NCBI GenBank assembly: GCA_017962605.1
Contig: JAGCUY010000007.1
Location: 752-64,751 of the forward strand
Direction: 5' to 3'
Length of the DNA: 64,000 bases
Origin: Kiritimatiellia bacterium
Lineage (GTDB): Bacteria; Verrucomicrobiota; Kiritimatiellia; RFP12; JAAYLN01
Shown piece after piece: positions 21,021-42,310 of the stretch; positions within the stretch are counted from its first letter, which is position 1; each line of letters opens with the position of its first letter. Made by a program: the position numbers and the translations under genes. Below the pieces are notes generated by a model. It was not told where the DNA came from. It did no database searches and saw only the letters and a list, made by a program, of their open reading frames with translations.

Positions 21021-21095
21021 AGCGCCAGCGCGGCGTCTGCGTTGCAATTTGCGCGGCAATCCTGTAAACTGGATTGCTGTAAAATTTCCACATCC

Positions 21096-22574: not shown

Positions 22575-22580
22575 AAACCC

Positions 22581-22823: not shown

Positions 22824-23572
22824 ACAAGGCAAAATCCAACACCGCCCTCGCCGCCGCGCTGTTCGCGGCATGCTCACTGGCTGGCGCAACGGCCCTTGCC
22901 GCTCCTGCGGAGCAGGCCGAAGAGGTCAAAATCCCGAAGCCCGACACGCCTGTCCTCATGATTGGCGACTCCATGATGCGCATCCTCGGCCGTCAGATGG
23001 AAAAGGCATTCAAGAAGGCCGACGTCCAGCCCGCCGTCGCCTTTTCGTCGCTCGGCTCTGGTCTCGGGCGGCCCGAGGCCTTTGACTGGACGGCGAAGAT
23101 AAAAGAGCTCCTCGAAACGGAAAAGCCGAAGACCGTGTTCGTCTGCCTCGGCACCAACGACCGCCAGGCGCTCGAACTAGAAAACGCCGTCATCAGGTAC
23201 GAGACCGCCGACGTCTGGCGCGAAACCTACGGGAAGCTTATCGGTGGCTTGATGGATCAGCTGCTCGAAGGAGGCGTGACGCGCGTGATATGGATGCTCC
23301 TCCCCGACATGAAGGACTCCGTGGCGCAGGAACACGCGCAGCTCGTGAACGAAATCGTCGGCGAGCAGGCGCAGGTGGAGAGCCGCAAGGACCGCGTAAC
23401 GCTCCTCGACCTCGCGCCGGTCCTCTCCCGCCACCCCGGCAAGTATTCGCAGTATATGATGTCGCCGACGGGCACCTCCCTCTCCGTGCGCGACCCCGAC
23501 GGCGTACACCTCTCCGTTGACGGCGGCAAGCTCATCGCGGAAACCGTCCTGAAGAAATACTGGCGGAAATAA
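22820..23572 (+). CDS. Periplasmic SGNH-fold O-acetyltransferase/esterase partner of MBOAT (AlgJ/AlgX/PatB-like)
   Basis: ATG at 22820 with RBS 'ggaaaggaaaaa'. Signal peptide 'ALAAALFAACSLAGATALA'. 'VLMIGDSMM' (GDS block) and 'VCLGTNDR' are present. Confidence 0.55.
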   Translation: MNKAKSNTALAAALFAACSLAGATALAAPAEQAEEVKIPKPDTPVLMIGDSMMRILGRQMEKAFKKADVQPAVAFSSLGSGLGRPEAFDWTAKIKELLETEKPKTVFVCLGTNDRQALELENAVIRYETADVWRETYGKLIGGLMDQLLEGGVTRVIWMLLPDMKDSVAQEHAQLVNEIVGEQAQVESRKDRVTLLDLAPVLSRHPGKYSQYMMSPTGTSLSVRDPDGVHLSVDGGKLIAETVLKKYWRK

Positions 23573-23887: not shown

Positions 23888-23917
23888 TTGCCAAAAATAT
23901 CCCAAAAATGGTATAAT
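23888..23917 (+). promoter_or_regulatory. Sigma70-like promoter with extended -10 (TTGCCA-18-TGgTATAAT) driving a leaderless transcript
   Basis: -35 'ttgcca' at 23888, 'tg' at 23909, 'tataat' at 23912..23917, and ATG at 23924. Confidence 0.5.
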
Positions 23918-23923
23918 TGTGCC

Positions 23924-24466
23924 ATGACTTCTTATCAGATTATTTACGATGACGCCATAGGGAATTATGGATTGTTCCCGACTTACAGGGCCAGAGAGCT
24001 GGGCATTTCCGGTGGAACGCTTGTAAAACTCGCACAGCGCGGACGCCTTGAACGGCTGGCGCATGGACTCTATCGCATTGACAAATTCGTTCCGCGCTCA
24101 GACGGGCTTGACGCATACGCATGTGCCGTCGCCTGTTGTGGGAAGGATGCCTATTTGTGGGGGCCATCTGTGCTGGAAATTTATGAGCTATGCCCAACTG
24201 ACCCTTCGCTAAAATATGTCGCCACGCCGCATCGCTTCAGAGGGAAAGTTTCAGAGGGAATTGTCGTCAAGAATCTAATGAAGCCTGAGGAAACAGAAAT
24301 CTATGAGGGGATACGCATTCAGGGGGCGCGACAGGCAATACTTTCCAGTCAGCATATCATAATGCTAGACAGGCTGCTAGAGGCGGTTGATGCTGCAGAG
24401 GAGCGGGGATTGCTTGATTCCACGCAGAAAACGGCCACAATAAGGGAACTTTACAAAAATGACTAA
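23924..24466 (+). CDS. AbiEi-like antitoxin / wHTH transcriptional regulator (type IV TA)
   Basis: N-terminal wHTH 'YRARELGISGGTLVKLAQRGRLERLAHGLYRI'. It is followed by a short nucleotidyltransferase-like fragment and has lower G+C. Confidence 0.45.
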   Translation: MTSYQIIYDDAIGNYGLFPTYRARELGISGGTLVKLAQRGRLERLAHGLYRIDKFVPRSDGLDAYACAVACCGKDAYLWGPSVLEIYELCPTDPSLKYVATPHRFRGKVSEGIVVKNLMKPEETEIYEGIRIQGARQAILSSQHIIMLDRLLEAVDAAEERGLLDSTQKTATIRELYKND

Positions 24467-25435: not shown

Positions 25436-26110
25436 ATGCACATAGGCCAATTTATAACGAGCCACAAGTTGCTGGTATTTGGCGGCGCGGCCATTGCCGG
25501 TGCTTGCGTGGCCATCGCAACAACGTTTGTTTTGCGGAGGCTGCGCAGAACACGTAAGCCGTCCATGCCGACCTTGCACTCGAAACGGGCAGCGCCAAAG
25601 CCGCTCGAAGCGACGAAAGGACACAAGCCGCCAGTCGCGTTGCCGGCGTCCAACTCGCACGAGCAGCCGGAGCCACAGACTAAACTGCCAGTTACTCCGC
25701 CGTGGCCGACTGCGCCAGCAGTAGGCGGTGGAATTTCGGACAACTGGGCGGAGTTCGTCCGCGACAGACTTGGTGAGCTCGATCCCACTTCATGCGCGGA
25801 CGAAACCAAGTGGGCGCTGGGCGTCGTTGATTTTCTCGATGAACTTAAAGAGGCGGAAGGTGAGGCGTCGCCTGAGGAGCGCAAAGCGTCAGCCACTCTA
25901 CGCACAGCGCTTCTGTCCAGTCTCGATTTCAGAAATTTCAAGCCTGTGGATTCCGATGAATGGAATCCAGAACGGCAACGCGCAGTCGCCGTGGTGCGCA
26001 AACCAGATGCGACGGGGACAAAGATTTTGGGCAAAGGCTCAACGGGACTTTCCCGCAACGGAAAAATCATCCGCAAGCAGGAAGTCAAAATCTCAACAAA
26101 AGGCAACTGA
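25436..26110 (+). CDS. Membrane-anchored hypothetical protein (N-terminal TM, Pro-rich linker, small C-terminal domain)
   Basis: ATG start. TM 'LLVFGGAAIAGACVAIATTFVL'. No recognised domain. It is the first gene of the island. Confidence 0.4.
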   Translation: MHIGQFITSHKLLVFGGAAIAGACVAIATTFVLRRLRRTRKPSMPTLHSKRAAPKPLEATKGHKPPVALPASNSHEQPEPQTKLPVTPPWPTAPAVGGGISDNWAEFVRDRLGELDPTSCADETKWALGVVDFLDELKEAEGEASPEERKASATLRTALLSSLDFRNFKPVDSDEWNPERQRAVAVVRKPDATGTKILGKGSTGLSRNGKIIRKQEVKISTKGN

Positions 26111-26112
26111 AC

Positions 26113-27042
26113 ATGGACTACGATCAATACGACGCGCCCGACATGGCGTTTGGCGCAAACCTCTACGACGACGCATCGCCGGACATCCTCGGCGTCCCCA
26201 ATGCCCAGGCGGACTTTTGGGACATGCAGGAGTTCGCGGACAACTGCGAACCAACTGCCGAAAGCTTCATCATTCGCCAGTTCGGCTATGACAATATCTC
26301 GACAAACGATTTCGCGTACATCTCGAACGCGAACGGATGGTATCAGCCCGGAGGCGGCACTAGCCCCGACGATATCGGCAACATGATGGATATGTTCGGC
26401 ATCGAAAACCACACTTACAGCAATGCCTCCATTGAAAATCTGGCAAGCGAGCTCATGGAAGGACACGGCGTGATTGTAGGCGTTCGCGCAGACCAGCTTT
26501 GGGAGCAGGGGCCGCTGCAGGAACTGTGGAACTGGCTCGCCGACATTTTCGGTTTCGATAATCCAATTGACCAACCGGCCGACCACGCCGTATGCGTGAC
26601 TGGGATAGACATGTCAGACCCTGACAATCCGATGGTCATTCTCAACGACCCTGGACATCCAAACGGGCAGGGCGCGTCCTATCCGCTCGACCGCTTCATG
26701 GACGCCTGGGAGAACAGCAACTTCGTCATGAACGCAACAAACGACCCGCTACCCGCCTTCACGGCGCAAAACGAGGCAATCCGCGACTCCATCTCGCAGT
26801 ATCTTGCCAACAATGACATCGCGCTTCCTTCACCAAATTATACCGTAGCATCTGAGCCAGCAGACATTGACCTGAATGGAATCGCGAATTCCGTCCACGA
26901 GTTTACCACCCCTGTGACTAACATACTGCAAGACATTGCAGGAATCATTGGAGCAATTGCCGGTGTCGTCGTGGCTGGCAATCTTCTTGACAAAGCCCTT
27001 GACGGTTTTTCAGGCGGTGATGACTTTGCCTACTCCCTCTAA
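26113..27042 (+). CDS. Peptidase_C39-like (papain-fold, BtrH/C39_2-type) domain protein with C-terminal glycine-zipper helix
   Basis: ATG at 26113 was confirmed. Cys motif 'NCEPTAESFIIRQFG' and His/Asp region 'DHAVCVTGID...NPMVILNDPGHPNG' are present. The C-terminus is 'IAGIIGAIAGVVVAGNLL'. Confidence 0.45.
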   Translation: MDYDQYDAPDMAFGANLYDDASPDILGVPNAQADFWDMQEFADNCEPTAESFIIRQFGYDNISTNDFAYISNANGWYQPGGGTSPDDIGNMMDMFGIENHTYSNASIENLASELMEGHGVIVGVRADQLWEQGPLQELWNWLADIFGFDNPIDQPADHAVCVTGIDMSDPDNPMVILNDPGHPNGQGASYPLDRFMDAWENSNFVMNATNDPLPAFTAQNEAIRDSISQYLANNDIALPSPNYTVASEPADIDLNGIANSVHEFTTPVTNILQDIAGIIGAIAGVVVAGNLLDKALDGFSGGDDFAYSL

Positions 27043-27072: not shown

Positions 27073-28941
27073 ATGAACACAAACAGCACCCCGACTCTCG
27101 AACAGTTTACCGATGGCGCCACCGCCGTCCTCGCGTTGGAAGCCGCTCTTACGGGCAAACCCGTCGATCCGGAATTAATCAAGAAAATCGCCATGTGGAA
27201 GATGGGCATCTTCCGCATAGTCGTAATGGGCGAGATCAAAAAGGGAAAGTCTTCCTTCATCAACGCCCTTCTTGGCCACAAGAACCTCGTGCCAGTCTGT
27301 TCGGACGTGGCGACATCGACAATCTTCAAGATTTGCTACGGCGAAAAAGTCGGCTACAAGGTCTATTTCTTCCAGGACAGCGGCAAGGCTCCAGTCGCAA
27401 TCCAGGCGGATGAACTCCCCGCATACGGCACAGAGGACGGCAATCCCGGCAACGAGAAGCAAGTTGATTTCATACAAGTCTTCTGCCCGTCGCCGCTTTT
27501 GAAAGCTGGTCTTGTGATTGTCGATACCCCAGGACTTGGAGGACTCTTCAAGCAGCACAAGCGCATTACCTACCAATACGTTCCCAAAGCCGACGCCGTC
27601 TTCCTTGTCACCGACAGCGTTGAGTCTCCAATCGGACAGGCGGAAATTGATCTCCTTGGCGACCTCAAGAAGGTGACAAAGCACATCTTCTTCGTGCAGA
27701 CGAAATCGCGACTTGTCGATGCGGATGCCCGCGAAGCCCGCAAGGAGAACAATATTCGTACCCTCGCGGAACAGGCAGGGTTCGAGAAGGACAAGATCAG
27801 GTATTTCGTTGTGGATTCGGCGACCAAATTCGCCGCCGACGAGGAACATGACTTGAAGAAGCTAGACCGCAGCGGCTTCGGCGAAGTGGCGCGTTTCGTG
27901 AACGGCTACATTCGCCCGAATGTCCACCGGCTCATCATGGCCCGCGCCATGGCGGAAATGCGTCCGAAAATCGACGCCGTATCGCGCGAACTCGACGCCC
28001 AGGCCGCAATCCTAAAGACAAAAAACGAGGAGGAACGTCAGGCCGCTATCAACGAACTGACGCGGGAACAGGAGCAGCTCAAGGCATGGGACTCTACGGA
28101 AAAGCGGGTCGTCTTGGCCATGCTTGAGGATGGCCTTGTCGAAGTCCGCGAGAAAGCGCTTGATACGATAGGCGCGTATAGGCCCAATGGGGCATTCCAT
28201 CAGGAAGTCTCTGCGACTCTCGCTAATCTTGATTCGGCAACGCAAATCGAGGATGCGCTGACAATTATCCAGCAGAACCTCTCCGATACCCTTTCTCAGG
28301 TTCTCTACGACACCGAGAAGGAAATGTCGCAGGGATGCGTGAAACTGCTTTCAGAAATCAGCCGGAAAATCGGCAAGTCTGTGGAACAAGGCGTCCTTCA
28401 GTCCGACTCGAACATTAGCGTTCCGATTTCGGGAGTTCCCGTGGAGATTAATAAATCGACGATGTTTGAGTCTTTGCGAAACGGATGGTTTGGAGGAACG
28501 TTCGGGGCGGCAATTGGTGGAGCCATCGGTAGTATTGTTCCGGTTGTTGGAACGACTGTTGGCGCATGGGTTGGCGCTTTTGTCGGCGGTGCGCTCAGCG
28601 GACTGTCATCAAACAAGCACGAAATGATTGCCGCTCGCAATCAGGCAGGTGCGGTCTTTGGCGGATGGCTTGCCAACGCATACGCCGAGATGTCGCAGAA
28701 AATCGGCTCGGCGCTAGACCAGATCAAGCGCAACGTCACGCGCGGCGTCACGGAAGCGGTGACTTCCGTCATCAAGGAGAAGGCCGACCATATCGCTGAA
28801 CTCAAGCAGATGGGGCAGAAGAGCAGCGAAGAAATAAAGGCGAAGATGGCGGAACTTCAGAAGCGCCAGCAGCAGTTCAAGCAAGCCGTCAACGACATGC
28901 AGGGCGGCGGTGCGGCAGCTGCAGCCGCCAAGGGAGCGTAG
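27073..28941 (+). CDS. Bacterial dynamin-like protein (BDLP/DynA-family large GTPase), copy 1
   Basis: G1 'GEIKKGKSSFINALLG', G3 'VIVDTPGLG', and long helical C-terminal stalk/paddle regions. Confidence 0.7.
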   Translation: MNTNSTPTLEQFTDGATAVLALEAALTGKPVDPELIKKIAMWKMGIFRIVVMGEIKKGKSSFINALLGHKNLVPVCSDVATSTIFKICYGEKVGYKVYFFQDSGKAPVAIQADELPAYGTEDGNPGNEKQVDFIQVFCPSPLLKAGLVIVDTPGLGGLFKQHKRITYQYVPKADAVFLVTDSVESPIGQAEIDLLGDLKKVTKHIFFVQTKSRLVDADAREARKENNIRTLAEQAGFEKDKIRYFVVDSATKFAADEEHDLKKLDRSGFGEVARFVNGYIRPNVHRLIMARAMAEMRPKIDAVSRELDAQAAILKTKNEEERQAAINELTREQEQLKAWDSTEKRVVLAMLEDGLVEVREKALDTIGAYRPNGAFHQEVSATLANLDSATQIEDALTIIQQNLSDTLSQVLYDTEKEMSQGCVKLLSEISRKIGKSVEQGVLQSDSNISVPISGVPVEINKSTMFESLRNGWFGGTFGAAIGGAIGSIVPVVGTTVGAWVGAFVGGALSGLSSNKHEMIAARNQAGAVFGGWLANAYAEMSQKIGSALDQIKRNVTRGVTEAVTSVIKEKADHIAELKQMGQKSSEEIKAKMAELQKRQQQFKQAVNDMQGGGAAAAAAKGA

Positions 28942-28944
28942 CAA

Positions 28945-30555
28945 ATGGGCGATGCGCCATCGGGAATAGGCCGCAAGTTGCAGGAGTCGTTCCGTGACTT
29001 CCTGCACGAGTCGGCGGAGATGTTCGGGGAATACGGGTTCCTCGGCGACTGCGAACGACAGCTTCGTGAACTGGAAGCTGGCATCGTCCGGCCCTTCAAC
29101 ATCGCGGTATTCGGACGCATGAAGACCGGCAAGAGTTCGCTCATCAACGCCCTGCTTGGTCGCGACCTCGCCATCACCGGCGTTGAGGAGACGACGGCGA
29201 CAGTAAACGTCATCTCGCATTCGGATGACCCCGCTATGCGCGGCAAATTCACCGTCCACTGGAAAGACCGTCCGCCTGAAACGTTCCTGCTTGACCGCCT
29301 CACCGTAGACTGGTCAGGCAAATCGAGGGAGGTCGTTGAGAAGGTCGCGAACACGGCCTATCTTCAACTCTACTCGGACGACCCCGCCCTAGCCCTCCAC
29401 GAAATCATTGACACGCCAGGAACAGGTGCGGCGGTCTCTGACCATGAGAAAGTCGCCCAGGCCTTCCTTGATCCGTCCGTGCAGGAGGGGCGCAAGGCCG
29501 ACGCGCTTGTCTATGTCTTTGGCATAAACGGGCGCGAGACCGACGAGGCGAATCTCAAGACATTCCGCGAGGGATGCCTACCCGGATCAAGGCCATACAA
29601 CAGCGTCGGCGTTCTTCACAAATGGGATGCCACCTATTGGAACTCCGGCGGAGACTGGGCGGAAATCCAATCGAAGGCCGAACGCCTAAAAGGGCAGATG
29701 GCTTCCGTCGTGGCGGATGTCATCCCAGTCAGCGCACCAATCGCCATGGCCGCCGCGCGGGCGACCGACGACGACCTCGCGACGGTCATTGCGCTAATCG
29801 GCAATAAGGGCGGCGAGTCCGTGGAGTCGCTGCTACAGGACGATGAAGACTGGAACGACGATGCGGACTGCCTGGCCTTGCGAAAACGTTTCACAATCCC
29901 TTGGATTTGCTTCCGGGTCTGTGTCCGCGAAGCCATCAAACTTGGCGATGGTGCGATGCCGGAGACACTACGCGCCCGTCTCCGCGAACTAGGCGGCATT
30001 GATCGTCTCCGCTCGTTCCTCGACCGGAACTTCTTCAAATCCGCCGCGCTCATCCGGCAGCGCCAGCAATATGCACGATTCCTCCGCGTCAAGGACGAGG
30101 CATACGCCCGCATACAAGACCGTCAGGAGGAACTGGAAACGGACGCCAAAAACTGGGATGCCCTATTTGAGCGGTCGATTGAACCAAGGTCTATTGCTTC
30201 CTGGGTCGAGCGAAAGCGCTTCCATGCAAAATCGGAACTGGAGACGCTCGTTCGGAAATGGACGGATCAGGACGGCCGATACCTCAACAGCGGCATCCCG
30301 AAGATCCTCGACGACCTCAACGCGCTGGACTGGTGCGCCGCCCATCCCGAACGCATATCCGAGACGGAGCTTGCGGCTCTTAATACGATGGCCGATCGCC
30401 TCGCCGGCGATGAAGCTGCCGCTTTGGACGCGGACATGCTCCGCGCCGTAAAAAAGCGCTTTTCGTCGCTCCGGCTCGGAACGCTGGACGCCGCAGGGCG
30501 CAAACTCGCCGATTATCTTTCACGCCGCATTGACGCCGCACTCCGCCTGAAATAA
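28945..30555 (+). CDS. Bacterial dynamin-like protein, copy 2 (paired with copy 1)
   Basis: G1 'GRMKTGKSSLINALLG' and G3 'IIDTPGTGA'. A 3-nt gap separates it from copy 1, the typical tandem BDLP arrangement. Confidence 0.7.
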   Translation: MGDAPSGIGRKLQESFRDFLHESAEMFGEYGFLGDCERQLRELEAGIVRPFNIAVFGRMKTGKSSLINALLGRDLAITGVEETTATVNVISHSDDPAMRGKFTVHWKDRPPETFLLDRLTVDWSGKSREVVEKVANTAYLQLYSDDPALALHEIIDTPGTGAAVSDHEKVAQAFLDPSVQEGRKADALVYVFGINGRETDEANLKTFREGCLPGSRPYNSVGVLHKWDATYWNSGGDWAEIQSKAERLKGQMASVVADVIPVSAPIAMAAARATDDDLATVIALIGNKGGESVESLLQDDEDWNDDADCLALRKRFTIPWICFRVCVREAIKLGDGAMPETLRARLRELGGIDRLRSFLDRNFFKSAALIRQRQQYARFLRVKDEAYARIQDRQEELETDAKNWDALFERSIEPRSIASWVERKRFHAKSELETLVRKWTDQDGRYLNSGIPKILDDLNALDWCAAHPERISETELAALNTMADRLAGDEAAALDADMLRAVKKRFSSLRLGTLDAAGRKLADYLSRRIDAALRLK

Positions 30556-30567: not shown

Positions 30568-32718
30568 ATGACAAACGCAATTGGAATCGACTTTGGAACA
30601 TCAAGGACTATGGTGTCCTATCTGGATTCATCCACGGGCAGGGTGGAATTAGTGACTTTTGGGTGTGATAGGTTCGTGCCCACGACCGTTCACATTGATG
30701 AAAAAGGGCAATATCTTTTCGGTAAAGATGCGGACGAACTGATTGCCACCGATCCCGAAGGCTACTGCCGAGCCTTCAAATTGCATCTTGCGGAGAGTGA
30801 TCCTATATTGCCTCGCGCGGGGGCTACGGCTGAGGATTTGGCGAAGCGTTTTCTTGGCCATATAAAGGAGGAGTGCGAACAGAACGTTTTCCACGGTGAA
30901 CCAATCGGCATGGCGACCATTACGGTTCCGGTATCGTTCTCTCCCGCTCGCAAGGCGGCCTTGAAGCGGGCTGCGGAGGCGGCGGGATTCGCCAAGGTGT
31001 CGTTTCTGCCGGAACCCGAAGCCGCCGGCATAGCCTTTCTGCGCGACAACCCAACGGACAAGTTCTCTCGCGCGCTCGTTCTTGATTGGGGCGGCGGAAC
31101 GCTTGACATAGCGATTATTTCGCGGGATGAAGACGGAACCATCCATGCTGACAGCCATTGCGCCGAGGGGCGTGATGATGTGGGCGGAGAGGAAATGGAC
31201 AGACGGCTCCTTGAAGACATCTCTGCAAAGTGGAAGACCGCTTTTCGGAAACAGCTTTTAAACGATGAGCTGGATGGTGTCCGTTTTTTGCGCAAGTCGC
31301 AAGAAACAAAGGAGAAATTGTCGCAAAAGAGCACGGCTCCCTTCTGGGGCATTCCGCCACAAAAAATAGATGTCACACGGGAGCGATTCAGTCAGCTCAT
31401 CGACGAAATGCTTGATTCCGCCGTCGATTTGATCAAGTCGGCGCTTGCGAAAAACAAAAAACGAGGGAATCCTGCCCCAGACGCCATCCTCCTAATCGGC
31501 GGCACGAGCCAGGTGCCAGCTGTCCGCGAGGCGATGGAGACGAACTTTCCTCAACTCCGTGTTCTTTCCTGGCATCATTCTCACGAGGCCGTCGCCTTGG
31601 GGGCGACAGTGGTAGATGCGGCGGCGAATCCTCAAAAGAACATGCATTCTACTGAAAAGAACACGAATCGAAATCACAAAACTTCTCCAAGGAAGAATAG
31701 AGGTCATTTTGATGTCGTTTGTCCACATTGCGGAAGCATCGAAGATGTGACTGGCAAAGGCCGTTGGAAGTGTGATAATTGCGGCAAACCCTTTGATGTA
31801 GATTCCCGTTCTCATGTTTCAATACCAAAAGAAGAGGAAGGGCCGCAAGCCGACTATTCTGGCAAATGCTTTGAAGAAGCGTTATCCCGCGCAGGTGAAT
31901 TGGCGGAAAATAATGAGTTGAGAAAACTGAAAAAATGCGACGCCGACATTATTGCGAAAGCCGCAGAGAACGGCAATATTCGTGCTGCTGCCATTCTTGG
32001 CCGCCTCTATTCAGAAGGATCTCGTGGCTACCAGGTGGACAACGGGTTGGCGATAAACTGGATGACAATAGCGGCAAATGCGGGTGATAATGACAGTCAG
32101 GCAATTCTTGCTTTGTGGTCTCTTGGTGGCGAAAACAGCCCTGCGCAGAAGAATCGTTCAAATGCACTTAAATGGTCCGAAATGGCTTATGATGGGAATA
32201 GAAGCCTAAAAAACCAAGCGATTCTATTGATTGTTCTGTCGTCTTTTGAAGATCCGGACAAGACACGCATAAGGCGTATAGGCCAAAACATAGATGGCAA
32301 AGTTGCCGATAAAGCCCCGGAAGAATTTTCAACAGCGGAACAAGTACTTCTCGGCATCGTTTATTCTTCTCGAGCTGTTCTGGCTATGAAGTCTGGTAAC
32401 TATGAAAAGGCTCGCCAATTCCTGCAAAAGGGTGCTGACTTTGGAAATCAAGAATCCGTTGACGCTTTGGCGGAATTGGATAGTGAAGCAAACGAAGAGG
32501 AAAATGCCTCAGAAATAACAGATAAACGTACAAATCTGGAAAAAGAAGTAAATCGAAAACCTAAAAAAAACTCTTATACTGATCCCAATGATGCGGCATT
32601 AAGCGGTGCCGCAATTGGAGCCGTCATCGGGACTATCATCCCAGGCGCTGGAACTCTTGCTGGAGCAGGAATCGGTGCAATAGCCGGAAGGCTCAAGGCA
32701 TGGTGGGACAATTTGTGA
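30568..32718 (+). CDS. Hsp70/DnaK-type nucleotide-binding-domain ATPase fused to zinc ribbon, Sel1/TPR-like repeats and a C-terminal glycine-zipper membrane helix
   Basis: Phosphate-1 'IGIDFGTSRTMVSY', phosphate-2 'LVLDWGGGTLDIAIIS' and adenosine 'ILLIGGTSQVPAVRE' are present. Zinc ribbon is 'CPHCGS...CDNCGKPF'. Sel1-like 'AAILGRLYSEGSRGYQVDNGLAINWM'. C-terminal 'GAAIGAVIGTIIPGAGTLAGAGIGAIAG'. There is no Hsp70 substrate-binding domain. Confidence 0.65.
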   Translation: MTNAIGIDFGTSRTMVSYLDSSTGRVELVTFGCDRFVPTTVHIDEKGQYLFGKDADELIATDPEGYCRAFKLHLAESDPILPRAGATAEDLAKRFLGHIKEECEQNVFHGEPIGMATITVPVSFSPARKAALKRAAEAAGFAKVSFLPEPEAAGIAFLRDNPTDKFSRALVLDWGGGTLDIAIISRDEDGTIHADSHCAEGRDDVGGEEMDRRLLEDISAKWKTAFRKQLLNDELDGVRFLRKSQETKEKLSQKSTAPFWGIPPQKIDVTRERFSQLIDEMLDSAVDLIKSALAKNKKRGNPAPDAILLIGGTSQVPAVREAMETNFPQLRVLSWHHSHEAVALGATVVDAAANPQKNMHSTEKNTNRNHKTSPRKNRGHFDVVCPHCGSIEDVTGKGRWKCDNCGKPFDVDSRSHVSIPKEEEGPQADYSGKCFEEALSRAGELAENNELRKLKKCDADIIAKAAENGNIRAAAILGRLYSEGSRGYQVDNGLAINWMTIAANAGDNDSQAILALWSLGGENSPAQKNRSNALKWSEMAYDGNRSLKNQAILLIVLSSFEDPDKTRIRRIGQNIDGKVADKAPEEFSTAEQVLLGIVYSSRAVLAMKSGNYEKARQFLQKGADFGNQESVDALAELDSEANEEENASEITDKRTNLEKEVNRKPKKNSYTDPNDAALSGAAIGAVIGTIIPGAGTLAGAGIGAIAGRLKAWWDNL

Positions 32719-32754
32719 CATCGCAAGCACATTACGTTCAGGTTGAATAATAAG

Positions 32755-35340
32755 ATGAATAATTCTATCGGCATCGACTTCGGCACCACCAAGACGATGG
32801 TGTCGTATTTGAATCCCGTCACCGGCAGGGCGGAACTCGTCGTTTTGGATAAAAATCGCGACCGGCCTTCCATCCCTACGACTATTCATCAGGATGAAGC
32901 AGGGCAAGTCGTTTTTGGTGAAGAGGCCGATGACCAATTAGCCTATGATCCCGAAGGCTATTGCCGCGCCTTCAAACTTCATCTGGGGGAAAACGACCCC
33001 GTGTTGACTCGGACGGGGGCTACGGCGGAGGCACTGACGGAGCGCTTTCTTGAACATATCAAAGAGGAATGCGAACTGAACGTCTTCCACGGAGAGTCGA
33101 TAGACACGGCGACCATCACGGTGCCGGTGCTGTTCTCTCCTTCGCGAAAGGCGTCGTTGAAGCGTGCCGCGGAGGCGGCCGGATTCTCCTCGGTTTCGTT
33201 TCTGCCCGAGCCGGAAGCCGCTGGAACGGCGTTCCTGCGCGACAATCCGGCAGACAAGTTCTCACGGGCGCTTGTCCTCGACTGGGGTGGCGGCACACTC
33301 GACATCGCCATCATTTCCCGGAACGAAGATGGGGCTATCCATGCGGACCGCCATTGCGCGGAAGGACGCGATGACGTAGGCGGAGAGGAGATGGACAGAC
33401 TATTGCTTGGCGCGGGAAATGAATTGTGGCGCGCTACATTCGGGTTGCCCTTGATTGAGTCCGAGGAAAACGAGCCGAAGCTCTTGCGTGAGGCGGAGAA
33501 AGTAAAGATTGGCCTTTCCCGCAAGGATACGGCTACTTTTAGGCGCGTGACGAGGAAAGTCGATGTCTCACGGGCGCAGTTCAAGCAACTTATTGCGGAA
33601 ATGCTCGATTCTGCAGTCGAACTTGTCCAGTCTTCGCTTGCGAAGAACAAGAATCAGGGCAATCCCGCGCCAGACGCCATCCTTTTGATTGGCGGCACTT
33701 GCCAGATTCCAGCCGTCCGCGAGGCAATGGAGACAAACTTTCCTGAACTCCGTGTCCTGTCATGGCATCATTCGCACGAGGCTGTGGCGCTGGGAGCTAT
33801 AGGAACTACCACGGCAAATATCCATTCTGGCGTCAACTTCAAATTCCAAGCCAAATACGATTGGCTCAAAAGAGAGAGGGTGCCAACTCTAGGAGGCGCA
33901 ATTGAATCCGGCATCTACCAGACTCCAGATGGAGGCTGGCAGTGCAACTACGACGGAGATTGGGGGTATGGTTGCGCGATAACGCTTCGTCCCGGCGAAG
34001 CCGAACCCTATGAAGTCCACGGTGAGATCTGCAAACGGTGGTATTGGGAAGGCGGTGCCTTTGACGAAAACGGCAGACGAGGCTGGTTGGGCTATCCTAT
34101 CTCCGACGAAGAGGCCTTTGAAGGCGACGGCGATCCCGCCGATCGCATTTCGCACTTCGAGAACGGGGACATCGTATGGTCGGAGAAAACGAAAGAGACC
34201 CGCATCGTCAACATCAAGGATCTAGCAAAGTGGCGCAACTTCAAATTCCAAGCCAAATATGATTGGCTCAAGAGAGAGAGGGTGCCAACTCTTGGGAGCG
34301 CAATTGAACCCGGCATCTACCAAACTCCAGATGGAGGCTGGCAGTGCAACTACGACGGAGAATGGGGGTATGGTTGCGCGATAACGCTCCGTCCCGGCGA
34401 CGCCGAACCCCATGAAGTCCACGGTGAGATCTGCAAACGGTGGTATCGGGAAGGCGGTGCCTTTGACGAAACCGGCAGGCGGGGCAGGTTGGGCTATCCT
34501 ATCTCCGACGAGGAGGCCTTTGACGGCGACGGCGATCCCGCCGACCGCATTTCGCACTTTGAGAACGGAGACATCGTATGGTCGGAGAAAACGAAAGAGG
34601 CCCGCGTTGTCAACATCAAGGATCTGGCAAAGTGGCGCAACTTCAAATTCCAAGCCAAATACGATTGGCTCAAGAGAGAGAGGGTGCCAACTCTTGGGGG
34701 CGCAATTGAACCCGGCATCTACCAAACTCCAGATGGAGGCTGGCAGTGCAACTACGACGGAGAATGGGGGTATGGTTGCGCGATAACGCTTCGTCCCGGC
34801 GATGCCGAACCACATGAAGTCCACGGTGAGATCTGCAAACGGTGGTATCGGGAAGGCGGTGCCTTTGACGAAACCGGCAGGCGGGGCTGGTTGGGCTATC
34901 CTATCTCCGACGAGGAGGCCTTTGAAGGCGACGGCGATCCCGCCGACCGCATTGCGCACTTCGAGAACGGAGACATCGTATGGTCGGAGAAAACGAAAGA
35001 GACCCGCATCGTCAACGTGTTGACGGATGAAGCTTTGCGCCTATTTGCCGGATTATCCCAAGTAGATGGCGCCTTAAACCAAACGGAAGTTGATTTCATG
35101 GAGAAATGGTATCCCGGTTCCACTACCAAGTCGGCGTGGAACGAAAAATTGCTGTACTCCGACGAAACAATAGAAGCATTAGCCGACAATGCCGCAACAT
35201 CATACAATTGCAACAAACAAGTATTGTCGGCGTTGATGCAGCATCTATGCGAATTCGTTTTATGCGACGGCCTCATGAATTCAAGCGAGAATGCTGCGCT
35301 CTCGTGGATCAACTATTTCTTCTTTACCAAGTATCAATAA
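32755..35340 (+). CDS. Hsp70/DnaK-type NBD ATPase fused to three tandem LGFP-like repeat modules
   Basis: 'IGIDFGTTKTMVSY', 'LVLDWGGGTLDIAIIS' and 'ILLIGGTCQIPAVRE' are present. Then come 3 x ~134-aa repeats containing 'GWLGYPISDEEAFEGDGDPADRISHFENGDIVWSEKTKE'. Start is ATG at 32755 (TTG at 32743 is also possible). Confidence 0.65.
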   Translation: MNNSIGIDFGTTKTMVSYLNPVTGRAELVVLDKNRDRPSIPTTIHQDEAGQVVFGEEADDQLAYDPEGYCRAFKLHLGENDPVLTRTGATAEALTERFLEHIKEECELNVFHGESIDTATITVPVLFSPSRKASLKRAAEAAGFSSVSFLPEPEAAGTAFLRDNPADKFSRALVLDWGGGTLDIAIISRNEDGAIHADRHCAEGRDDVGGEEMDRLLLGAGNELWRATFGLPLIESEENEPKLLREAEKVKIGLSRKDTATFRRVTRKVDVSRAQFKQLIAEMLDSAVELVQSSLAKNKNQGNPAPDAILLIGGTCQIPAVREAMETNFPELRVLSWHHSHEAVALGAIGTTTANIHSGVNFKFQAKYDWLKRERVPTLGGAIESGIYQTPDGGWQCNYDGDWGYGCAITLRPGEAEPYEVHGEICKRWYWEGGAFDENGRRGWLGYPISDEEAFEGDGDPADRISHFENGDIVWSEKTKETRIVNIKDLAKWRNFKFQAKYDWLKRERVPTLGSAIEPGIYQTPDGGWQCNYDGEWGYGCAITLRPGDAEPHEVHGEICKRWYREGGAFDETGRRGRLGYPISDEEAFDGDGDPADRISHFENGDIVWSEKTKEARVVNIKDLAKWRNFKFQAKYDWLKRERVPTLGGAIEPGIYQTPDGGWQCNYDGEWGYGCAITLRPGDAEPHEVHGEICKRWYREGGAFDETGRRGWLGYPISDEEAFEGDGDPADRIAHFENGDIVWSEKTKETRIVNVLTDEALRLFAGLSQVDGALNQTEVDFMEKWYPGSTTKSAWNEKLLYSDETIEALADNAATSYNCNKQVLSALMQHLCEFVLCDGLMNSSENAALSWINYFFFTKYQ
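33835..35013 (+). repeat. Near-identical 402-bp tandem repeat x ~2.9 inside the Hsp70-NBD gene
   Basis: Units start at 33835, 34237 and 34639 ('aacttcaaattccaagccaaata(c/t)gattggctcaa...'), with only a few substitutions between copies. Confidence 0.85.
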
Positions 35341-35425: not shown

Positions 35426-36592
35426 ATGGGACACACAACCGAACCAACTGGCGAGAAGCCGCCTGTTGAGCAATGGCTCGCAAACACTGGAAAGCATTCT
35501 GCGGAATGGACTTTCCGATCTGTCAAGAACTTCTTCAAATTTGAACACCCAACCGAAACAGAGGTTTCACGATTCGGAAGTGCCGCAGCCACTTTTGAGT
35601 TTTCCCGATTGTTTCCGCTTGCCGTCGTTTGCCTTGGCTTCGGATGGATTGGATCATGGATATGCTCTGTCTGCGATTTGGATGTAGAATCCGATTCCAG
35701 ATGGGCGATATGGCCAATCGCCTTTCTTGCCCTATATGGTGTTATTAGAGCTCTGAAGCATTTCCTGCGGCCAAAGAGCATCGAATGGTGGCCAAATGCG
35801 CTGATCTGTGCATTTACTGCCACAATAGGGTTGCTAACCCTTTTCCTCTTTCAGAGCCTGGCTGACGTAATGGCGGATATTGACGCAAGGCGCGGTTTTG
35901 TGGCATTGGTAAAAATGATTGGGCAATGCTATCGAGCAGTTGACGATCCCGAAGCTGGTCTTTCTGAGAAGTTCATAGGCTATATTGGAGGAGTCGGTCT
36001 TTGTGAGGAATCCGTGAAGATTCTCCCAGTTTGCCTCCTGATGGTCAACAGGAAAAAACTGCCGTTCAGACTTGAATTGTCTTTCCGGTCATTTTTGACA
36101 TTGGCATTCTTCTCCGGACTTGGTTTTGGCATCGGGGAGGCGCTATATAGCTATGCCATTCCTGAAAATGGCGATTTGGATGCCCAATTGTCACGGTGGT
36201 TCGCCTGCGTCCCCTCGCATGCGATCTATACAATGATCGATGCCGCCTTCCTTTGGCTACTGCAACCGCAAATCCAAAGAGCCGCAGACCCCAGAATAAA
36301 AGTAGGTTGGTTTGTCCTTTGCGTGGCAACAGTCGCTGTCTTGCATGGGATCTACGATGTCCTTTGCGTAATTCCATTTGTGGGCGTGCTCCTTGATGCG
36401 GCTTCGTTGGTGCTACTTTGGTGGGCGGTGCGGTTTTCCATTCGGCGCCGCTCCTCGGTTGACGGTTCGGATTCTTCGGGCCTAGAGGACTTCAACGCCA
36501 TGACTTTCAATACTTTTGGCAAATTTTTTGCCAAGACATATCTCATCATTCTCGTCGGCATTATCCTTTATGCCAAGTTCTGGTGTCTTTGA
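35426..36592 (+). CDS. PrsW-family intramembrane metalloprotease (anti-sigma-factor site-1 protease-like)
   Basis: RBS 'ggagga' plus ATG at 35426. Multi-TM. PrsW signature motifs 'CEESVKIL' (EExxK), 'GFGIGEALYSY' (FGxxE) and 'HGIYDVL' (HxxxD). Confidence 0.6.
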   Translation: MGHTTEPTGEKPPVEQWLANTGKHSAEWTFRSVKNFFKFEHPTETEVSRFGSAAATFEFSRLFPLAVVCLGFGWIGSWICSVCDLDVESDSRWAIWPIAFLALYGVIRALKHFLRPKSIEWWPNALICAFTATIGLLTLFLFQSLADVMADIDARRGFVALVKMIGQCYRAVDDPEAGLSEKFIGYIGGVGLCEESVKILPVCLLMVNRKKLPFRLELSFRSFLTLAFFSGLGFGIGEALYSYAIPENGDLDAQLSRWFACVPSHAIYTMIDAAFLWLLQPQIQRAADPRIKVGWFVLCVATVAVLHGIYDVLCVIPFVGVLLDAASLVLLWWAVRFSIRRRSSVDGSDSSGLEDFNAMTFNTFGKFFAKTYLIILVGIILYAKFWCL

Positions 36593-37419: not shown

Positions 37420-38499
37420 ATGGGCACGATACTTGGAGACATGTTCAAGAAGGTCGGGGGTGGCCTTGGAAAAGGCTTTGCGTCATGGCTTGGGCAAATC
37501 TCGACGTGGATTGCGCTTTTAGTCGCAACAGTACTGGCTGTCGCATCTCTGGTTGGCGGCATCTTCTGGATCCCGACAAAAACGCTGGGCGTCCTGATCG
37601 CTGGCATCGGGTGTTTAGCTTCCGGCATTCTCTTTGCCCTCTGTCTGCGAAAGAGCGGAGTATTTGGCTCAAAGGATGCGGAAACCCGTGCTGCATTGCA
37701 GAAGGAAATCGAAAAACTCCGCTGCGAAAAGGATGCCCGCATCGCCGCGTTGGAGGCCGACAACGAACGTCTAAAGCACCAGCGCATCGACGTCAATTCG
37801 TTCGCGCCCATCCTCAAGCTGGGACTTGCCGAGGCTGACATGTCAGTTCGTGATGTGAAAATCGAATGGATGGACGATTTCAAGCCAGGAAACATGTTGA
37901 CGAATGTGATTGGCTACCCCGCGCGCAGCAAATACGTTGGTGTCATTCAACGGTCGTTCAAGGCCGTTTATGGCGTCGATTTGATGAAACTCAAGATTTG
38001 CGAGGATAACGACTGTCTTCGCATAGCCGGTATCGTGCCGGAGAACATCGGCATCAAGGATGACGAAACGCGCTGGCTTCTGCGTCAGACGCAGACTTTC
38101 CGGTTGAAGGGAACTCCTCTGACGCGCGGCGATGGCATCCCGCAGCAATGCGCCATAGGCGACGGCTGGGGCGATGGCGAGAAATTCTGGCAAATCGACA
38201 AGGAAGCGCCGTTCGAGGGCAGTCTCGATCTCAACAAGACTGCGGAAATGGCGAGTGCGCAGGAGCACGAGCTTGGCGAACGCATCAACCGAAGCCAGGG
38301 CGCCGAGTTTAGGATGATGAATGGCTACATCCAGCAAATGGCGCAAGGGTTTGTCAGACTCCTCCTCGCTCCCGCCCACAAGCCTGTGGTCTTCGTACAG
38401 ACTCCGCTTGCCGAAATCGCCGACTCTCCAGCATGGCTCTCTCTGGAAGACTTCGCTGCCGGATTCAACAATAAGTTGCTGGCGGAAAACAAACCATGA
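37420..38499 (+). CDS. Membrane protein with coiled-coil segment and DUF4230-like C-terminal domain (hypothetical)
   Basis: Two N-terminal TM helices, a coiled coil 'ALQKEIEKLRCEKDARIAALEADNERLK', and a region resembling DUF4230 ('VIQRSFKAVYGVDLMKLKI...'). Confidence 0.35.
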   Translation: MGTILGDMFKKVGGGLGKGFASWLGQISTWIALLVATVLAVASLVGGIFWIPTKTLGVLIAGIGCLASGILFALCLRKSGVFGSKDAETRAALQKEIEKLRCEKDARIAALEADNERLKHQRIDVNSFAPILKLGLAEADMSVRDVKIEWMDDFKPGNMLTNVIGYPARSKYVGVIQRSFKAVYGVDLMKLKICEDNDCLRIAGIVPENIGIKDDETRWLLRQTQTFRLKGTPLTRGDGIPQQCAIGDGWGDGEKFWQIDKEAPFEGSLDLNKTAEMASAQEHELGERINRSQGAEFRMMNGYIQQMAQGFVRLLLAPAHKPVVFVQTPLAEIADSPAWLSLEDFAAGFNNKLLAENKP

Positions 38500-39134
38500 C
38501 CAAAACAAGAACGAAGAAGTCCGCCAAGGGTGGGGCCATGAAGCCTTCCCTGCGAGACCGCATCTACACCTCCTTCGAGCAGATGACGGATGCGTACAAC
38601 GAAGTGCGTGATGACCTGATCGCGCTGGGCATTCTTTGGAGGGGCTCGAAGCTCGACAAGGTGGAGTGCTACTATGAATCCATCGCCCCCATTGCCGCTC
38701 TCAAGGGGGGGATGGGGTATTTCAGTTTCAAGGACCACGACATCCATTTTCCCTCCTTATATCTGCCTTTCGGCTGGCTGACCGGCAGCGTTGGCGAAAA
38801 AGATTCTGCATCAAACGTGATCCGCCACGAGTTCGGCCACGCGCTCGCCGATCAGTACCCAGCGGCGCTGAAAAAGGGCGGGCTTTTCCGCGAGGCGTTT
38901 GGAGGAGTCTATTCCGACAAGCCTGCGCCCGACATCGATCCCGACAACTGGGAGTTCGATTGCGTCTCCCCCTACGCCGCAACCGAAACCCGCGAGGACT
39001 TCGCGGAGACTTTCATGCTTTTCCTGAAGCACAAGGGGAAGTTGCCGAAAAAGTTCGCTAATAAACCAGCCATCGCGAAGAAATGGGCCGCTGTGGCTGA
39101 AATCATAAAGCGCGTTCGTGCATTAGAAAACTGA
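38496..39134 (+). CDS. HExxH zinc metallopeptidase-like protein
   Basis: 'IRHEFGHALAD' (HExxH) with a downstream Glu in 'REDFAETF'. Its start overlaps the previous stop (ATGA). Confidence 0.5.
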   Translation: MTKTRTKKSAKGGAMKPSLRDRIYTSFEQMTDAYNEVRDDLIALGILWRGSKLDKVECYYESIAPIAALKGGMGYFSFKDHDIHFPSLYLPFGWLTGSVGEKDSASNVIRHEFGHALADQYPAALKKGGLFREAFGGVYSDKPAPDIDPDNWEFDCVSPYAATETREDFAETFMLFLKHKGKLPKKFANKPAIAKKWAAVAEIIKRVRALEN

Positions 39135-39902: not shown

Positions 39903-40265
39903 CGTGGTTAGTGATTAGTCGTTAGTCATTAGTGGCTCGCATGGTGTGCATCCCCTATCGAATATTTTCCCGCACCGTAATCTATCGACTTCTCCGCACC
40001 GTGGTCTAGCGACAATTCCTAACCTTAGTCTAGCGACCTTTCCGACCCGTAGTCTATCGATGTTTCCTCGCCATAGTCTATCGACATTCCCGCATGGTAT
40101 AGCCTATCGACTTTTCCGAAACATGATCCAAAGTTTTTCCGAACCATGGTCAGTTTTTCTTTCCGCACCATGGTCTATTTTTCTTTCCGCACCATGGTCT
40201 ATTTTTCTTTCCGCACCATGGTCTATTTTTCTTTCCGCACCATGGTCTTGTGAAACGAATGCATG
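39903..40265 (+). repeat. Right island-flanking repeat (IR-R): 'gtggttagtgattagtcgttag' head plus ~12 degenerate 24 to 27-bp tandem units ending in 4 perfect 'tttttctttccgcaccatggtcta' copies
   Basis: Direct reading. It matches 42030..42310 in the same orientation and 24781..24900 in inverted orientation. Confidence 0.8.
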
Positions 40266-40452: not shown

Positions 40453-40491
40453 CGAATATGATATAATATCTTGAATTTTGGGAGAATCTGC

Positions 40492-41862
40492 ATGATAAAC
40501 AGAAAAATAATGAAGAGGCTTGAACTCCTGCGTACTTCCAATGGAAAGCACGCGCTTCTCATCGATGGCGCGCGACAGACTGGGAAGACTTACATTGTAA
40601 GGGAATTCGCAAAAAGACATTACGAGTCCTTCATTGAAATCAACTTTATCAGAATGAAGAGGGCTCGGGAAATTTTCGAAAACGTCGAAGACGAGAAGGA
40701 CATCCTTGTAAAACTGTCAGCCCTGTTTAAGAAACCGCTGAAGAAAGGCGCAACGCTTGTGTTCCTTGACGAAGTTCAGGAATGCCCGGAGGCTGTCACT
40801 TACATCAAGTTTTTGGTGGAAGAGGGGTCGTGCCATTATGTGTTGAGCGGGTCCCTGCTGGGTGTCGAACTCAAAAACATTCGTTCGGTGCCTGTCGGGT
40901 ATATGGATGAGGTGAAGATGTATCCGCTGGACTTTGAGGAGTTCGTCGAGGCGAACGGTGAGTCCCCTGAATTGGTAGAGGCCGCAAGACAGTCGTGGAA
41001 CAAGCGCCGCCCGCTTGCCTCCGTCTATCACACGAGGCTGCTGAAACTTTTCCGGCTTTACCTTGTTGTTGGCGGCATGCCCGCCGTTGTCCAGAAATAC
41101 ATCGACACCCACGACATCGCCCAAGTCGTGCGCGAACAAAAAAAGATACTTGCGCTCTACCGCCGGGACATAACGCAATACGACGAGGCGAATTCCCTTC
41201 GAATTCGTGCCGTGTTCGACCGCATTCCGGCGGAGCTAAACGAGAAGAACAAGCGGTTTTTTGCGTCTTCCATAAAACCGGGCGTGAAGTTTGAAAACCT
41301 TGGAGACGAGTTCCTTTGGCTGAAAGAGGCTGGCGTGGCCCTTGCCACGGTTAACGTGGAGGCGCCGAAGTCGCCGCTCAAGCTTGCTGAGAAGCCAAGC
41401 TTGTTCAAGCTGTTTTCAAACGATGTCGGACTTCTGGCGGCCCAGTACATGAATGGAATCCAACTTGAGATCTTGAATGGAGCCGTGGATGTCAACTTTG
41501 GGGCCGTTTACGAGAACGCTGTGGCGCAGGAACTCGCCGCGCATGGGTTTGAGTTGAACTATTACGATTCAAACAGGCACGGGGAGATTGATTTTGTTTT
41601 GGAGCGCGAAGGGGGCGTTCTTCCCGTGGAAGTCAAGAGCGGAAAGCACTACAAGCGGCATCGTGCGTTGAACCATGTAATGGCGGACCGTGAATACGCG
41701 ATAAAGGAGGCGCTTGTCCTTGACGATTCGATGCTTTCCGTTGAAAATGGGATATTCTATGCGCCAATCTACATGGTCATGTTCCTGAAAAGGGACACCA
41801 TGCCTGAGAAGATGATCTACTCTGTAGGCACACCGCTGGAAGTGGCAAAAGCCTTGTCATGA
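40492..41862 (+). CDS. AAA+ ATPase (AAA_14 + DUF4143 family ATP-binding protein)
   Basis: Walker A 'GARQTGKTY' and Walker B 'LVFLDEVQ'. RBS 'gggaga' plus ATG at 40492 (the track start at 40471 is TTG). Lower G+C. Flanked by direct repeats. Confidence 0.6.
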   Translation: MINRKIMKRLELLRTSNGKHALLIDGARQTGKTYIVREFAKRHYESFIEINFIRMKRAREIFENVEDEKDILVKLSALFKKPLKKGATLVFLDEVQECPEAVTYIKFLVEEGSCHYVLSGSLLGVELKNIRSVPVGYMDEVKMYPLDFEEFVEANGESPELVEAARQSWNKRRPLASVYHTRLLKLFRLYLVVGGMPAVVQKYIDTHDIAQVVREQKKILALYRRDITQYDEANSLRIRAVFDRIPAELNEKNKRFFASSIKPGVKFENLGDEFLWLKEAGVALATVNVEAPKSPLKLAEKPSLFKLFSNDVGLLAAQYMNGIQLEILNGAVDVNFGAVYENAVAQELAAHGFELNYYDSNRHGEIDFVLEREGGVLPVEVKSGKHYKRHRALNHVMADREYAIKEALVLDDSMLSVENGIFYAPIYMVMFLKRDTMPEKMIYSVGTPLEVAKALS

Positions 41863-42029: not shown

Positions 42030-42310
42030 TCATTAGTCGTTAGCCGTTAGTCACTAGTCGTTAGTGGCTCGCACGGAGTGTATTCCCTATCGAATACTTT
42101 CCCGCACCGTAATCTATCGACTTCTCCGCACCGTGGTCTAGCGACCTTTCTGACCCGTAGTCTATCAATGTTTCCGCACTATAATCTATCGACATTCCCG
42201 CACGGTATAGTCTATCGACTTTTCCGAAACATGATCCAAAGTTTTTCCGAACCATGGTCTAATAATGTTTACGCTCCATGGTCTATTGGCATTTCCGAAC
42301 CATAGTCTTG
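42030..42310 (+). repeat. Second direct copy of the IR-R repeat
   Basis: 'cattagtcgttagccgttagtcactagtcgttagtggctcgcacggagtgtattccctatcgaatactttcccgcaccgtaatctatcgacttctccgcaccgtggtctagcgacc...'. Confidence 0.8.

Follow-up and report, generated by a model that had tools for sequence, protein, structure and literature searches.

A three-copy, 402-bp in-frame tandem repeat encoding LGFP-type modules in an Hsp70-like protein of a Kiritimatiellae bacterium

The repeat array and the protein that carries it

We analyzed a 64-kb stretch of DNA (hereafter, the window; positions 752 to 64,751 of contig JAGCUY010000007.1, 87.5 kb) from a metagenome-assembled genome (MAG) of the Kiritimatiellae, and focused on a gene for an Hsp70-like protein that contains a long tandem repeat. 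The product is laid out as an Hsp70-type nucleotide-binding domain (NBD), three copies of a 134-aa double-LGFP module and a TerB-like tail (Table 1). Tandem Repeats Finder, which was used for array detection, reported a single array at 33828..35016 with a period of 402 bp, 3.0 copies, 95% matches, 0% indels and a score of 2173, far beyond chance. When aligned to the reading frame, the units start at 33829, 34231 and 34633 inside a + strand open reading frame (ORF; 32743..35340); the repeat homology ends at 35016 and is followed by unique 3' sequence. The first ~6 bases of unit 1 deviate from the other units because they form the junction with the NBD linker. A sequence-only reading of this DNA had noted three 402-bp tandem repeats at 33835-35013; the repeats are real, and those limits lie a few bases off the true ones (33829-35016). 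The mechanical ORF begins with TTG at 32743 (865 aa), and all public gene calls begin with ATG at 32755 (861 aa, P0001/P0129); an exact-sequence look-up of the 865-aa product gave no public match.

We compared the units over the 378-bp core that is present in all three. Units 1 and 2 differ at 24 positions (93.7% identity), units 1 and 3 at 17 (95.5%) and units 2 and 3 at 12 (96.8%), and each of the three units carries its own set of diagnostic substitutions. The copies are therefore nearly identical, although the 'handful of substitutions' in the sequence-only reading slightly understates their divergence. No further copies were found when the unit was run by tblastn against the entire window. 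Two long ORFs in other frames cross the array, at 34222-34959 (– strand; 245 aa) and 34412-34786 (+ strand; 124 aa). We rejected both as genes, since they lack independent gene support and arise because the repeat propagates an open frame.

To characterize the product of one unit, we searched it against the Pfam LGFP profile (PF08310; gathering cutoff, 22 bits), as had been suggested together with the LGFP assignment. One 134-aa unit scored 44.2 bits and the whole protein 96.3 bits in three stretches, in agreement with that assignment. Pfam detects the second half of each unit only; the first half-repeat is too degenerate for the profile and retains only 'LGGAIEP'. In an alignment of 22 modules from the window protein and related proteins, which also served as the module profile, the LGYP motif occupies unit positions 87-90, and L87, G88 and P90 are invariant (22/22). 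The AlphaFold2 (AF2) model of one unit on this alignment (pLDDT 92, pTM 0.85) comprises an N-terminal helix followed by two halves, each of a helix and three strands. Its top Foldseek match was 6sx4, Corynebacterium glutamicum mycoloyltransferase A (MytA/PS1; probability 1.00, TM-score 0.54, 118 columns), which is the only LGFP protein with a solved structure, and the 22-module profile matched the isolated LGFP domain of the same protein (6swz, E 1.1e-13). This profile was required, as a single-sequence search of the PDB with one unit returned chance matches only. The LGFP repeat, originally defined in PMC2447325, has ~54 residues forming a helix and a 3-4-stranded sheet, and five such repeats in MytA make a stalk that binds peptidoglycan-arabinogalactan (PMC11299179). 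Judging from the unit model together with the profile matches, each 402-bp unit is predicted to encode an autonomously folding module of one helix and two LGFP repeats, the first of which is degenerate in sequence.

The NBD aligns to residues 35-359 of Mycobacterium tuberculosis DnaK and keeps the motifs GIDxGTT, EPxAA, DxGGGTxD and LxGGxxxxP, by which the ATPase domain appears to be intact. The Pfam HSP70 match spans profile positions 109-377 of 599, and the protein therefore lacks the Hsp70 substrate-binding domain. A canonical Hsp70 chaperone (DnaK or HscA) was considered and rejected, because only the NBD is present and the LGFP modules and TerB-like tail stand in place of the C-terminal substrate-binding domain and lid; the NCBIfam DnaK and HscA models scored ~110 bits against cutoffs of 620-1019. 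For the tail, the Pfam TerB profile (PF05099) gave E 0.019 and 15.7 bits against a gathering cutoff of 24.4, and matched 7 of 14 homologous tails (best E 3.9e-5). The top Foldseek matches of the AF2 tail model (pLDDT 91.8) were the TerB-family structures 2h5n and 2ou3 (probability 0.95-0.97, but E ~0.2 and TM-score 0.5). The tail is thus probably TerB-like, though it falls under the Pfam curated threshold.

The protein begins directly with the Hsp70 phosphate-1 loop (MNNSIGIDFGTTKT), and neither a signal peptide nor a transmembrane (TM) or hydrophobic segment was found in it (maximum 19-residue Kyte-Doolittle mean, 1.36). Because the protein has an ATP-driven domain and no export signal, and because other proteins join the module to GTPase and TIR domains (see below), the LGFP modules of the Hsp70-like protein are predicted to be cytoplasmic.

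Table 1. Positions in the window of the repeat-bearing gene, its parts and the other genes of its cassette
Feature	Position	Strand	Product or residues	Remarks
Repeat-bearing gene	32755..35340	+	861 aa	MBP5542583.1, 'Hsp70 family protein'
Hsp70/actin-fold ATPase domain (NBD only)	32755..33819	+	residues 1-355	Pfam HSP70, 114 bits
Repeat unit 1	33829..34230	+	aa 359-492	predicted helix and two LGFP repeats
Repeat unit 2	34231..34632	+	aa 493-626	variable unit among assemblies
Putative minimal gene-conversion patch, unit 2	34389..34410	+		window C,C,C; L001 T,T,A (unit 3 state)
Putative crossover stretch of L088	34411..34485	+		75 bp identical in units 2 and 3 (offsets 181-255)
Repeat unit 3	34633..35016	+	aa 627-754	
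TerB-like tail	35020..35337	+	~102 aa	all-helical
Dynamin-like GTPase 1 (cassette gene 1)	27073..28941	+	622 aa	Gly-zipper/TM region; Pfam Dynamin_N, E 7e-19
Dynamin-like GTPase 2 (cassette gene 2)	28945..30555	+	536 aa	
Paralogous Hsp70-NBD protein (cassette gene 3)	30568..32718	+	716 aa	arm of zinc ribbon, Sel1/TPR repeats and Gly-zipper

Other hosts of the module, the gene cassette and a possible function

We found the ~130-aa module in two further types of protein: in a single copy at the very N-terminal end of membrane dynamin-like proteins (DLPs) of ~900 aa, and twice in a protein composed of a TIR domain, the two modules and an FGE-sulfatase domain. Outside the window, the neighbours of module-bearing genes are of the conflict type. 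In one locus (L002, 10001-19937), the module-bearing DLP gene stands beside genes for a 1088-aa DUF87 ATPase, a colicin-DNase/WHH toxin and a SUKH immunity protein and an HNH gene; in a second (L006, 328-6986), it stands beside a small GTPase, an M48 peptidase and a patatin; and in a third (L009/L010, 7968-11632), beside a small GTPase and an M48-like ORF. The gene for the TIR protein (L004, 10001-12136; also in L005) lies in an island with three more TIR genes, Exo_endo_phos and an AAA ATPase, which is likely a defence island of another Kiritimatiellae-like genome. DnaJ-TerB (DjlA-like) genes also occur near module-bearing genes (L002, 20797-21618; L004, 19864-20709).

An exhaustive search with the module profile through 1.84 billion protein representatives returned 3218 proteins at E 1e-3 or better, 942 at 1e-10 or better and 43 at 1e-30 or better. 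The full 130-position module was confined to a few dozen clusters at 50% identity, and the remainder were generic multi-LGFP proteins. Among 185,579 GTDB species representatives, to which the genome of the window does not belong, the full module was found in only three MAGs of the Planctomycetes-Verrucomicrobia-Chlamydiae (PVC) group (L009, from a rumen RUG genome, and L008 and L010, labelled 'Verrucomicrobia'); the other matches were ordinary actinobacterial, acidobacterial or myxobacterial LGFP proteins. A word-indexed protein search with one 134-aa unit yielded only eight short fragments, and whole-protein and profile searches were far more informative.

In the window, the repeat-bearing gene is the fourth member of a cassette in which two dynamin-like GTPase genes precede two Hsp70-NBD genes. 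The NBDs of the two Hsp70-like proteins are 68% identical. PADLOC matched the first GTPase to LeoBC (E 1.7e-26) and LeoA (E 4.8e-24) and the second to LeoA (E 9.5e-11), and the adjacent LeoA-like and LeoBC-like dynamin genes by which the dynamin-like anti-phage system Eleos is recognized are thus present here. The same four-gene core (a DLP of ~620 aa, a DLP of ~537 aa and two Hsp70-NBD-only proteins), with other C-terminal arms, was found in two Kiritimatiellae contigs (L007, 1478-7862; L091, 2128-10352) and in one from the Akkermansiaceae (L090, 4520-12446), and in all four cases the dynamin pair comes first. A whole-protein search showed that the Hsp70-NBD family spans Kiritimatiellae, Verrucomicrobiae and Akkermansiaceae. 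Its C-terminal arms are extremely variable and include Sel1, ankyrin, 4Fe-4S, PP-binding, L7/L12-C, TerB-like and LGFP domains; the TerB-like domain recurs in at least 13 other members, and twice in one of them (P0004, aa 389-493 and 801-904). A defence system of the Hsp70/dynamin/TerB or Hsp70-like/dynamin type is undescribed in the searchable literature, in which the sole architectural analogue is that of Kaur et al. 2020.

The cassette is flanked by genes for a C39-like cysteine peptidase (25960-27042), a PrsW-type intramembrane protease (35426-36592), small membrane proteins and a Peptidase_Mx zinc peptidase (38496-39134); C39-like and Mx peptidases adjoin the cassette in L091 as well. An AbiEi_4-like regulator lies nearby (23888-24466). 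Farther downstream, a 211-bp direct repeat (39990-40200 and 42099-42308; 84% identical) brackets an AAA_14/DUF4143 ATPase gene (40471-41862), and its left copy contains a 24-bp insertion (40154-40177) relative to a near-identical strain contig (L001, described below). The upstream region (7151-23572) encodes GH127, DUF5696, GDSL/SGNH esterases and an MBOAT and DUF459 pair, that is, functions in glycan degradation and acyl modification, which fits a polysaccharide-degrading gut or rumen member of the Kiritimatiellae. Sample labels (XIEF21, WILK20, TONG22 and RUG) point to gut or rumen metagenome surveys, and the RUG genomes are rumen-derived.

Based on these observations, we hypothesize that the six LGFP repeats might form a multivalent binding arm where an Hsp70 normally has its substrate-binding domain, much as the five repeats of MytA form an elongated stalk. 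Through this arm, the ATPase might be guided to a ligand, either a glycan or one derived from peptidoglycan, or to a protein that also has the module. The TerB-like tail would provide membrane or metal proximity, and the cassette would act in membrane stress or phage defence. The number of units could tune avidity or reach, and could vary within the population by recombination. We infer that the NTPase core of the cassette stays constant while its sensor or adaptor arms are swapped, a layout typical of conflict and stress systems. This functional account is possible but tentative, and several points weigh against it. Within the window, the module occurs in this one protein only, so that no homotypic partner is evident locally. 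The proteins in which LGFP repeats are documented to bind the cell wall are all actinobacterial and extracellular, from which a cytoplasmic ligand would be an extrapolation. Finally, the suggested defence or stress role of the cassette draws solely on architecture and on the PADLOC similarity to LeoA/LeoBC.

An alternative hypothesis is that the module is a homotypic adaptor joining module-bearing Hsp70-like, dynamin-like and TIR proteins, in the manner of effector-associated or Death-like domains. The module is indeed common to three NTPase/effector protein types in one bacterial clade, the window units are closest to the DLP modules, and shared adaptor domains have been described in GTPase/HSP70 conflict systems (Kaur et al. 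2020, PMC7159879). However, the operons of L002, L004 and L006, like the window, contain no second module-bearing gene, and the LGFP fold is a documented carbohydrate and cell-wall binder and not a known homotypic interaction domain. We therefore consider the adaptor hypothesis unlikely. In a further reading, the module would be an intracellular sensor or adaptor that gut and rumen PVC bacteria shuffle among otherwise unrelated NTPase-based, immune-like machines; a repeat known only for binding the cell wall outside the cell would have been co-opted to recognize peptidoglycan- or phage-derived glycans or a shared partner, with the cassette as an undescribed PVC system of defence or membrane stress. 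The machines sharing the module may include the dynamin/Hsp70-NBD cassette, the stand-alone membrane DLPs beside nuclease toxins or patatin, and the TIR-FGE-sulfatase proteins. As a whole, this reading is speculative and somewhat doubtful.

Origin of the array and probable exchange between its units

We compared the array with the corresponding region of two orthologs from other Kiritimatiellae (P0002, 798 aa; P0003, 837 aa), which share 71% NBD identity and the gene order with the window protein, synteny being confirmed in L007. Each ortholog has three modules that are mutually 37-54% identical, 118-132 aa in length and separated by differing linkers, and neither the ortholog nor the TIR protein contains a tandem repeat at the DNA level. 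The window units are mutually 88-91% identical in amino acid sequence, 73-78% identical to the N-terminal modules of DLPs and 42-58% identical to the modules of P0002 and P0003. At the nucleotide level, they are 81% identical to DLP modules of other genomes, compared with 64-68% to the orthologous modules. A GYGC insertion is common to the window units and the DLP modules.

In a tree of 34 modules (18 from DLPs; 500 bootstraps), the three window units were monophyletic in 488 of 500 replicates, and they formed a clade with the 18 DLP modules in 493, with all modules of the Hsp70 orthologs outside. The units were nested within the diversity of the DLP modules in 374 replicates. These results show that the three units share a single recent ancestor with an affinity to DLP modules, and are consistent with transfer of the module from a DLP to the Hsp70 protein. 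The common origin implied by the sequence-only reading is accordingly supported, the units being unlike the diverged modules of the orthologs. The simplest history would be that an older arm of three diverged modules was replaced in this lineage by one DLP-type module, which was then amplified to three units by unequal exchange to give a perfectly periodic array; amplification by this route is proposed because the exact 402-bp period and the identical linkers fit it. A mixed history, in which a DLP-type module entered one position and then spread by conversion, may also apply.

We next considered the possibility that three old, diverged modules were merely homogenized in situ by conversion, with neither capture from a DLP nor new duplication. 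In its favour, a count of three modules at this position is already seen in the orthologs, and an apparent inter-unit conversion tract is seen between strains (see below). However, the window units cluster with the DLP modules, including the shared GYGC, and not with module 1, 2 or 3 of the orthologs, and a period of exactly 402 bp without indels and with identical linkers contrasts with the unequal lengths and linkers of the ortholog modules. Concerted evolution alone is thus distinctly unlikely.

Between units, dS ranges from 0.08 to 0.18 and dN/dS from 0.18 to 0.26. A dN/dS of ~0.2 indicates that all three copies are kept by purifying selection. Compared with a strain divergence of ~0.0004 differences per site (9 single-nucleotide polymorphisms (SNPs) in 22.6 kb), these values suggest that the copies have been maintained much longer than the divergence time of the sampled strains. 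The expansion appears to be lineage-specific but not very recent, and its earlier description as 'very recent' was overstated.

To examine variation of the array, we compared four independent assemblies of essentially one population, all of them short-read metagenome assemblies: the window MAG, L001 (ENA ERZ28653423), L088 (ERZ28018842) and L089 (ERZ28653958). L001, with three units, matches the window at 99.85% identity over 22.6 kb. Of the nine SNPs between them, four lie inside the 1.19-kb array (binomial P = 7.8e-4), and three of these four (unit 2 offsets 159, 171 and 180) turn unit 2 bases into those of unit 3. This pattern appears to be the signature of a gene-conversion tract of 22-188 bp from copy 3 to copy 2, the maximal tract of 188 bp corresponding to unit 2 offsets 68-255. 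L088, a 4.2-kb MEGAHIT k141 contig, encodes a 727-aa product (P0131), that is, 861 minus 134 residues. Its unit 1 is intact and is followed by a hybrid that matches unit 2 through at least offset 180 and unit 3 from offset 256 or earlier, as would result from a clean single crossover between copies 2 and 3 that deleted one unit. L089 has three units, with a 100-N scaffold gap in place of unit 2 offsets 123-200, and its gene call is a 283-aa fragment (P0130). L001 and L089 contain the same three units in the same order as the window. A scan of JGI metagenomes revealed no closer strains and no further copy-number alleles.

These comparisons support the view that the array still undergoes homologous exchange between units, or else that the site is an assembly trap. 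Both the length variation between strains and the assembly-collapse risk anticipated from the sequence are borne out (727 versus 861 aa; the 100-N gap), although biology and assembler behaviour may each contribute; likewise, the anticipated ongoing concerted evolution is supported as recombination by the conversion patch of L001, unless this is itself an assembly trap. Slipped-strand mispairing, which had been proposed as a mechanism, is inapplicable in the sense of contingency loci: these have units of 1-9 bp that shift the frame or promoter spacing, whereas the present unit is 402 bp, a multiple of 3, and the variant drops one unit in frame. Unequal homologous exchange or template switching between long repeats fits instead. 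Diversity-generating and phase-variation mechanisms were also ruled out, as there are neither short repeats nor a template repeat and the differences between units are dominated by purifying selection.

We also asked whether the array or its copy number could be an assembly artefact, the differences among assemblies being assembler noise. In addition to the short-read origin of every source, the gap within unit 2 of L089 and the two-unit MEGAHIT contig are in line with this view, and the variable sites are bounded by stretches in which the units agree over 75-92 bp. However, the window MAG, L001 and L089 agree in the number, substitutions and order of the units; the 12-24 differing sites are spaced such that 150-bp reads can phase neighbouring ones; the frame is kept, and the dN/dS is that of three separately selected copies; and the junction in L088 requires 141-mers joining unit 2- and unit 3-specific bases, which are absent from a pure three-unit template. 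An artefact is therefore very unlikely. The three-unit state itself appears secure, because three assemblies agree on it and each unit has its own diagnostic sites.

Some observations nevertheless count against the history and exchange proposed above. For the direction of transfer, from a DLP to the Hsp70 protein, bootstrap support reaches only 75%. In addition, short-read assembly alone might account for the conversion patch, the N gap and the two-unit contig, and both the crossover and the patch fall where the units are identical for 75-92 bp. Taking these points into account, we regard the structural and evolutionary account as a whole as very probable, and the full explanation, a lineage-specific in-frame triplication including its origin, maintenance and function, as reasonably probable.

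Comparison with known systems and significance

Long, near-identical intragenic repeats with strain-variable copy number are known from exported adhesins, such as the G5-E repeats of Staphylococcus aureus SasG/Aap and the alpha C protein of group B Streptococcus. The present array resembles them in its in-frame units of hundreds of base pairs that encode whole folding modules with >90% DNA identity, in the gain or loss of whole units by homologous exchange and in the hazard of assembly collapse. However, in those exported adhesins the number of repeats sets reach or antigenic masking, whereas the window protein is predicted to be intracellular and belongs to an NTPase cassette. Its units also number only three and diverge by 3-6%, compared with near 100% identity in the adhesins.

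With MytA/PS1, the window protein shares the repeat family and fold, a helix and a small antiparallel sheet with LG[FY]P, and the arrangement of the repeats as a tandem, elongated arm on an enzyme domain. It differs in the fixed 134-aa super-unit of two repeats with an extra N-terminal helix, in the near identity of its units in DNA, and in its predicted cytoplasmic location among module hosts that are Hsp70-like ATPases, DLPs and TIR proteins, whereas MytA is secreted. Moreover, the Kiritimatiellae are diderm PVC bacteria and lack the peptidoglycan-arabinogalactan that MytA binds, which argues against a comparable wall-anchoring role. The suggestion that the repeats form a cell-surface, wall-anchoring region whose copy number changes surface display is in fact highly implausible: although the characterized LGFP domains, whose fold the module shares, are extracellular cell-wall binders (C. 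glutamicum MytA/PS1 and mycobacteriophage lysins; PMC2447325, PMC3314691, PMC11299179), the repeat-bearing protein shows none of the export features of such an anchor and starts with a phosphate-binding loop, its ATP-dependent NBD would be nonfunctional outside the cell, and the module precedes GTPase domains and follows a TIR domain in proteins that likewise lack signal peptides.

At the level of the cassette, the closest likeness is to the GTPase-centric DO-GTPase conflict systems, which have paired paralogous GTPases, HSP70-only proteins and variable non-enzymatic arms (Kaur, Burroughs, Iyer and Aravind 2020, PMC7159879). In architecture only, both have two paralogous GTPase genes followed by HSP70-ATPase-only proteins without a peptide-binding domain, highly variable non-enzymatic arms, membrane-proximal components and peptidases nearby. 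The cassette GTPases are, however, of the Dynamin_N type, and no GAP1 or tubulin component was identified. The cassette DLPs resemble those of Eleos in their PADLOC matches to LeoA and LeoBC, but Eleos has no Hsp70 partner, and the cassette is not known to have a defence phenotype.

These results have several implications. First, the array demonstrably misleads short-read assemblers and gene callers, since the same gene appears in public catalogues as an 861-aa protein, a 727-aa protein and a 283-aa fragment. Second, it would illustrate cleanly, in nature, how a module in a cytoplasmic protein can be replaced, amplified in tandem and still undergo unequal exchange. Third, the two-dynamin/two-Hsp70-NBD cassette with its hypervariable arms is a candidate conflict or membrane-stress system. 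As a repeat, the array is an ordinary object. What is new is the setting of the module: LGFP, so far a marker of actinobacterial surface proteins and phage lysins, also occurs as a two-repeat super-unit inside apparently intracellular ATPase, GTPase and TIR proteins of the Kiritimatiellae and Verrucomicrobia and is exchanged between such cytoplasmic NTPase proteins, for which an automated 'cell-wall-binding' annotation would mislead.

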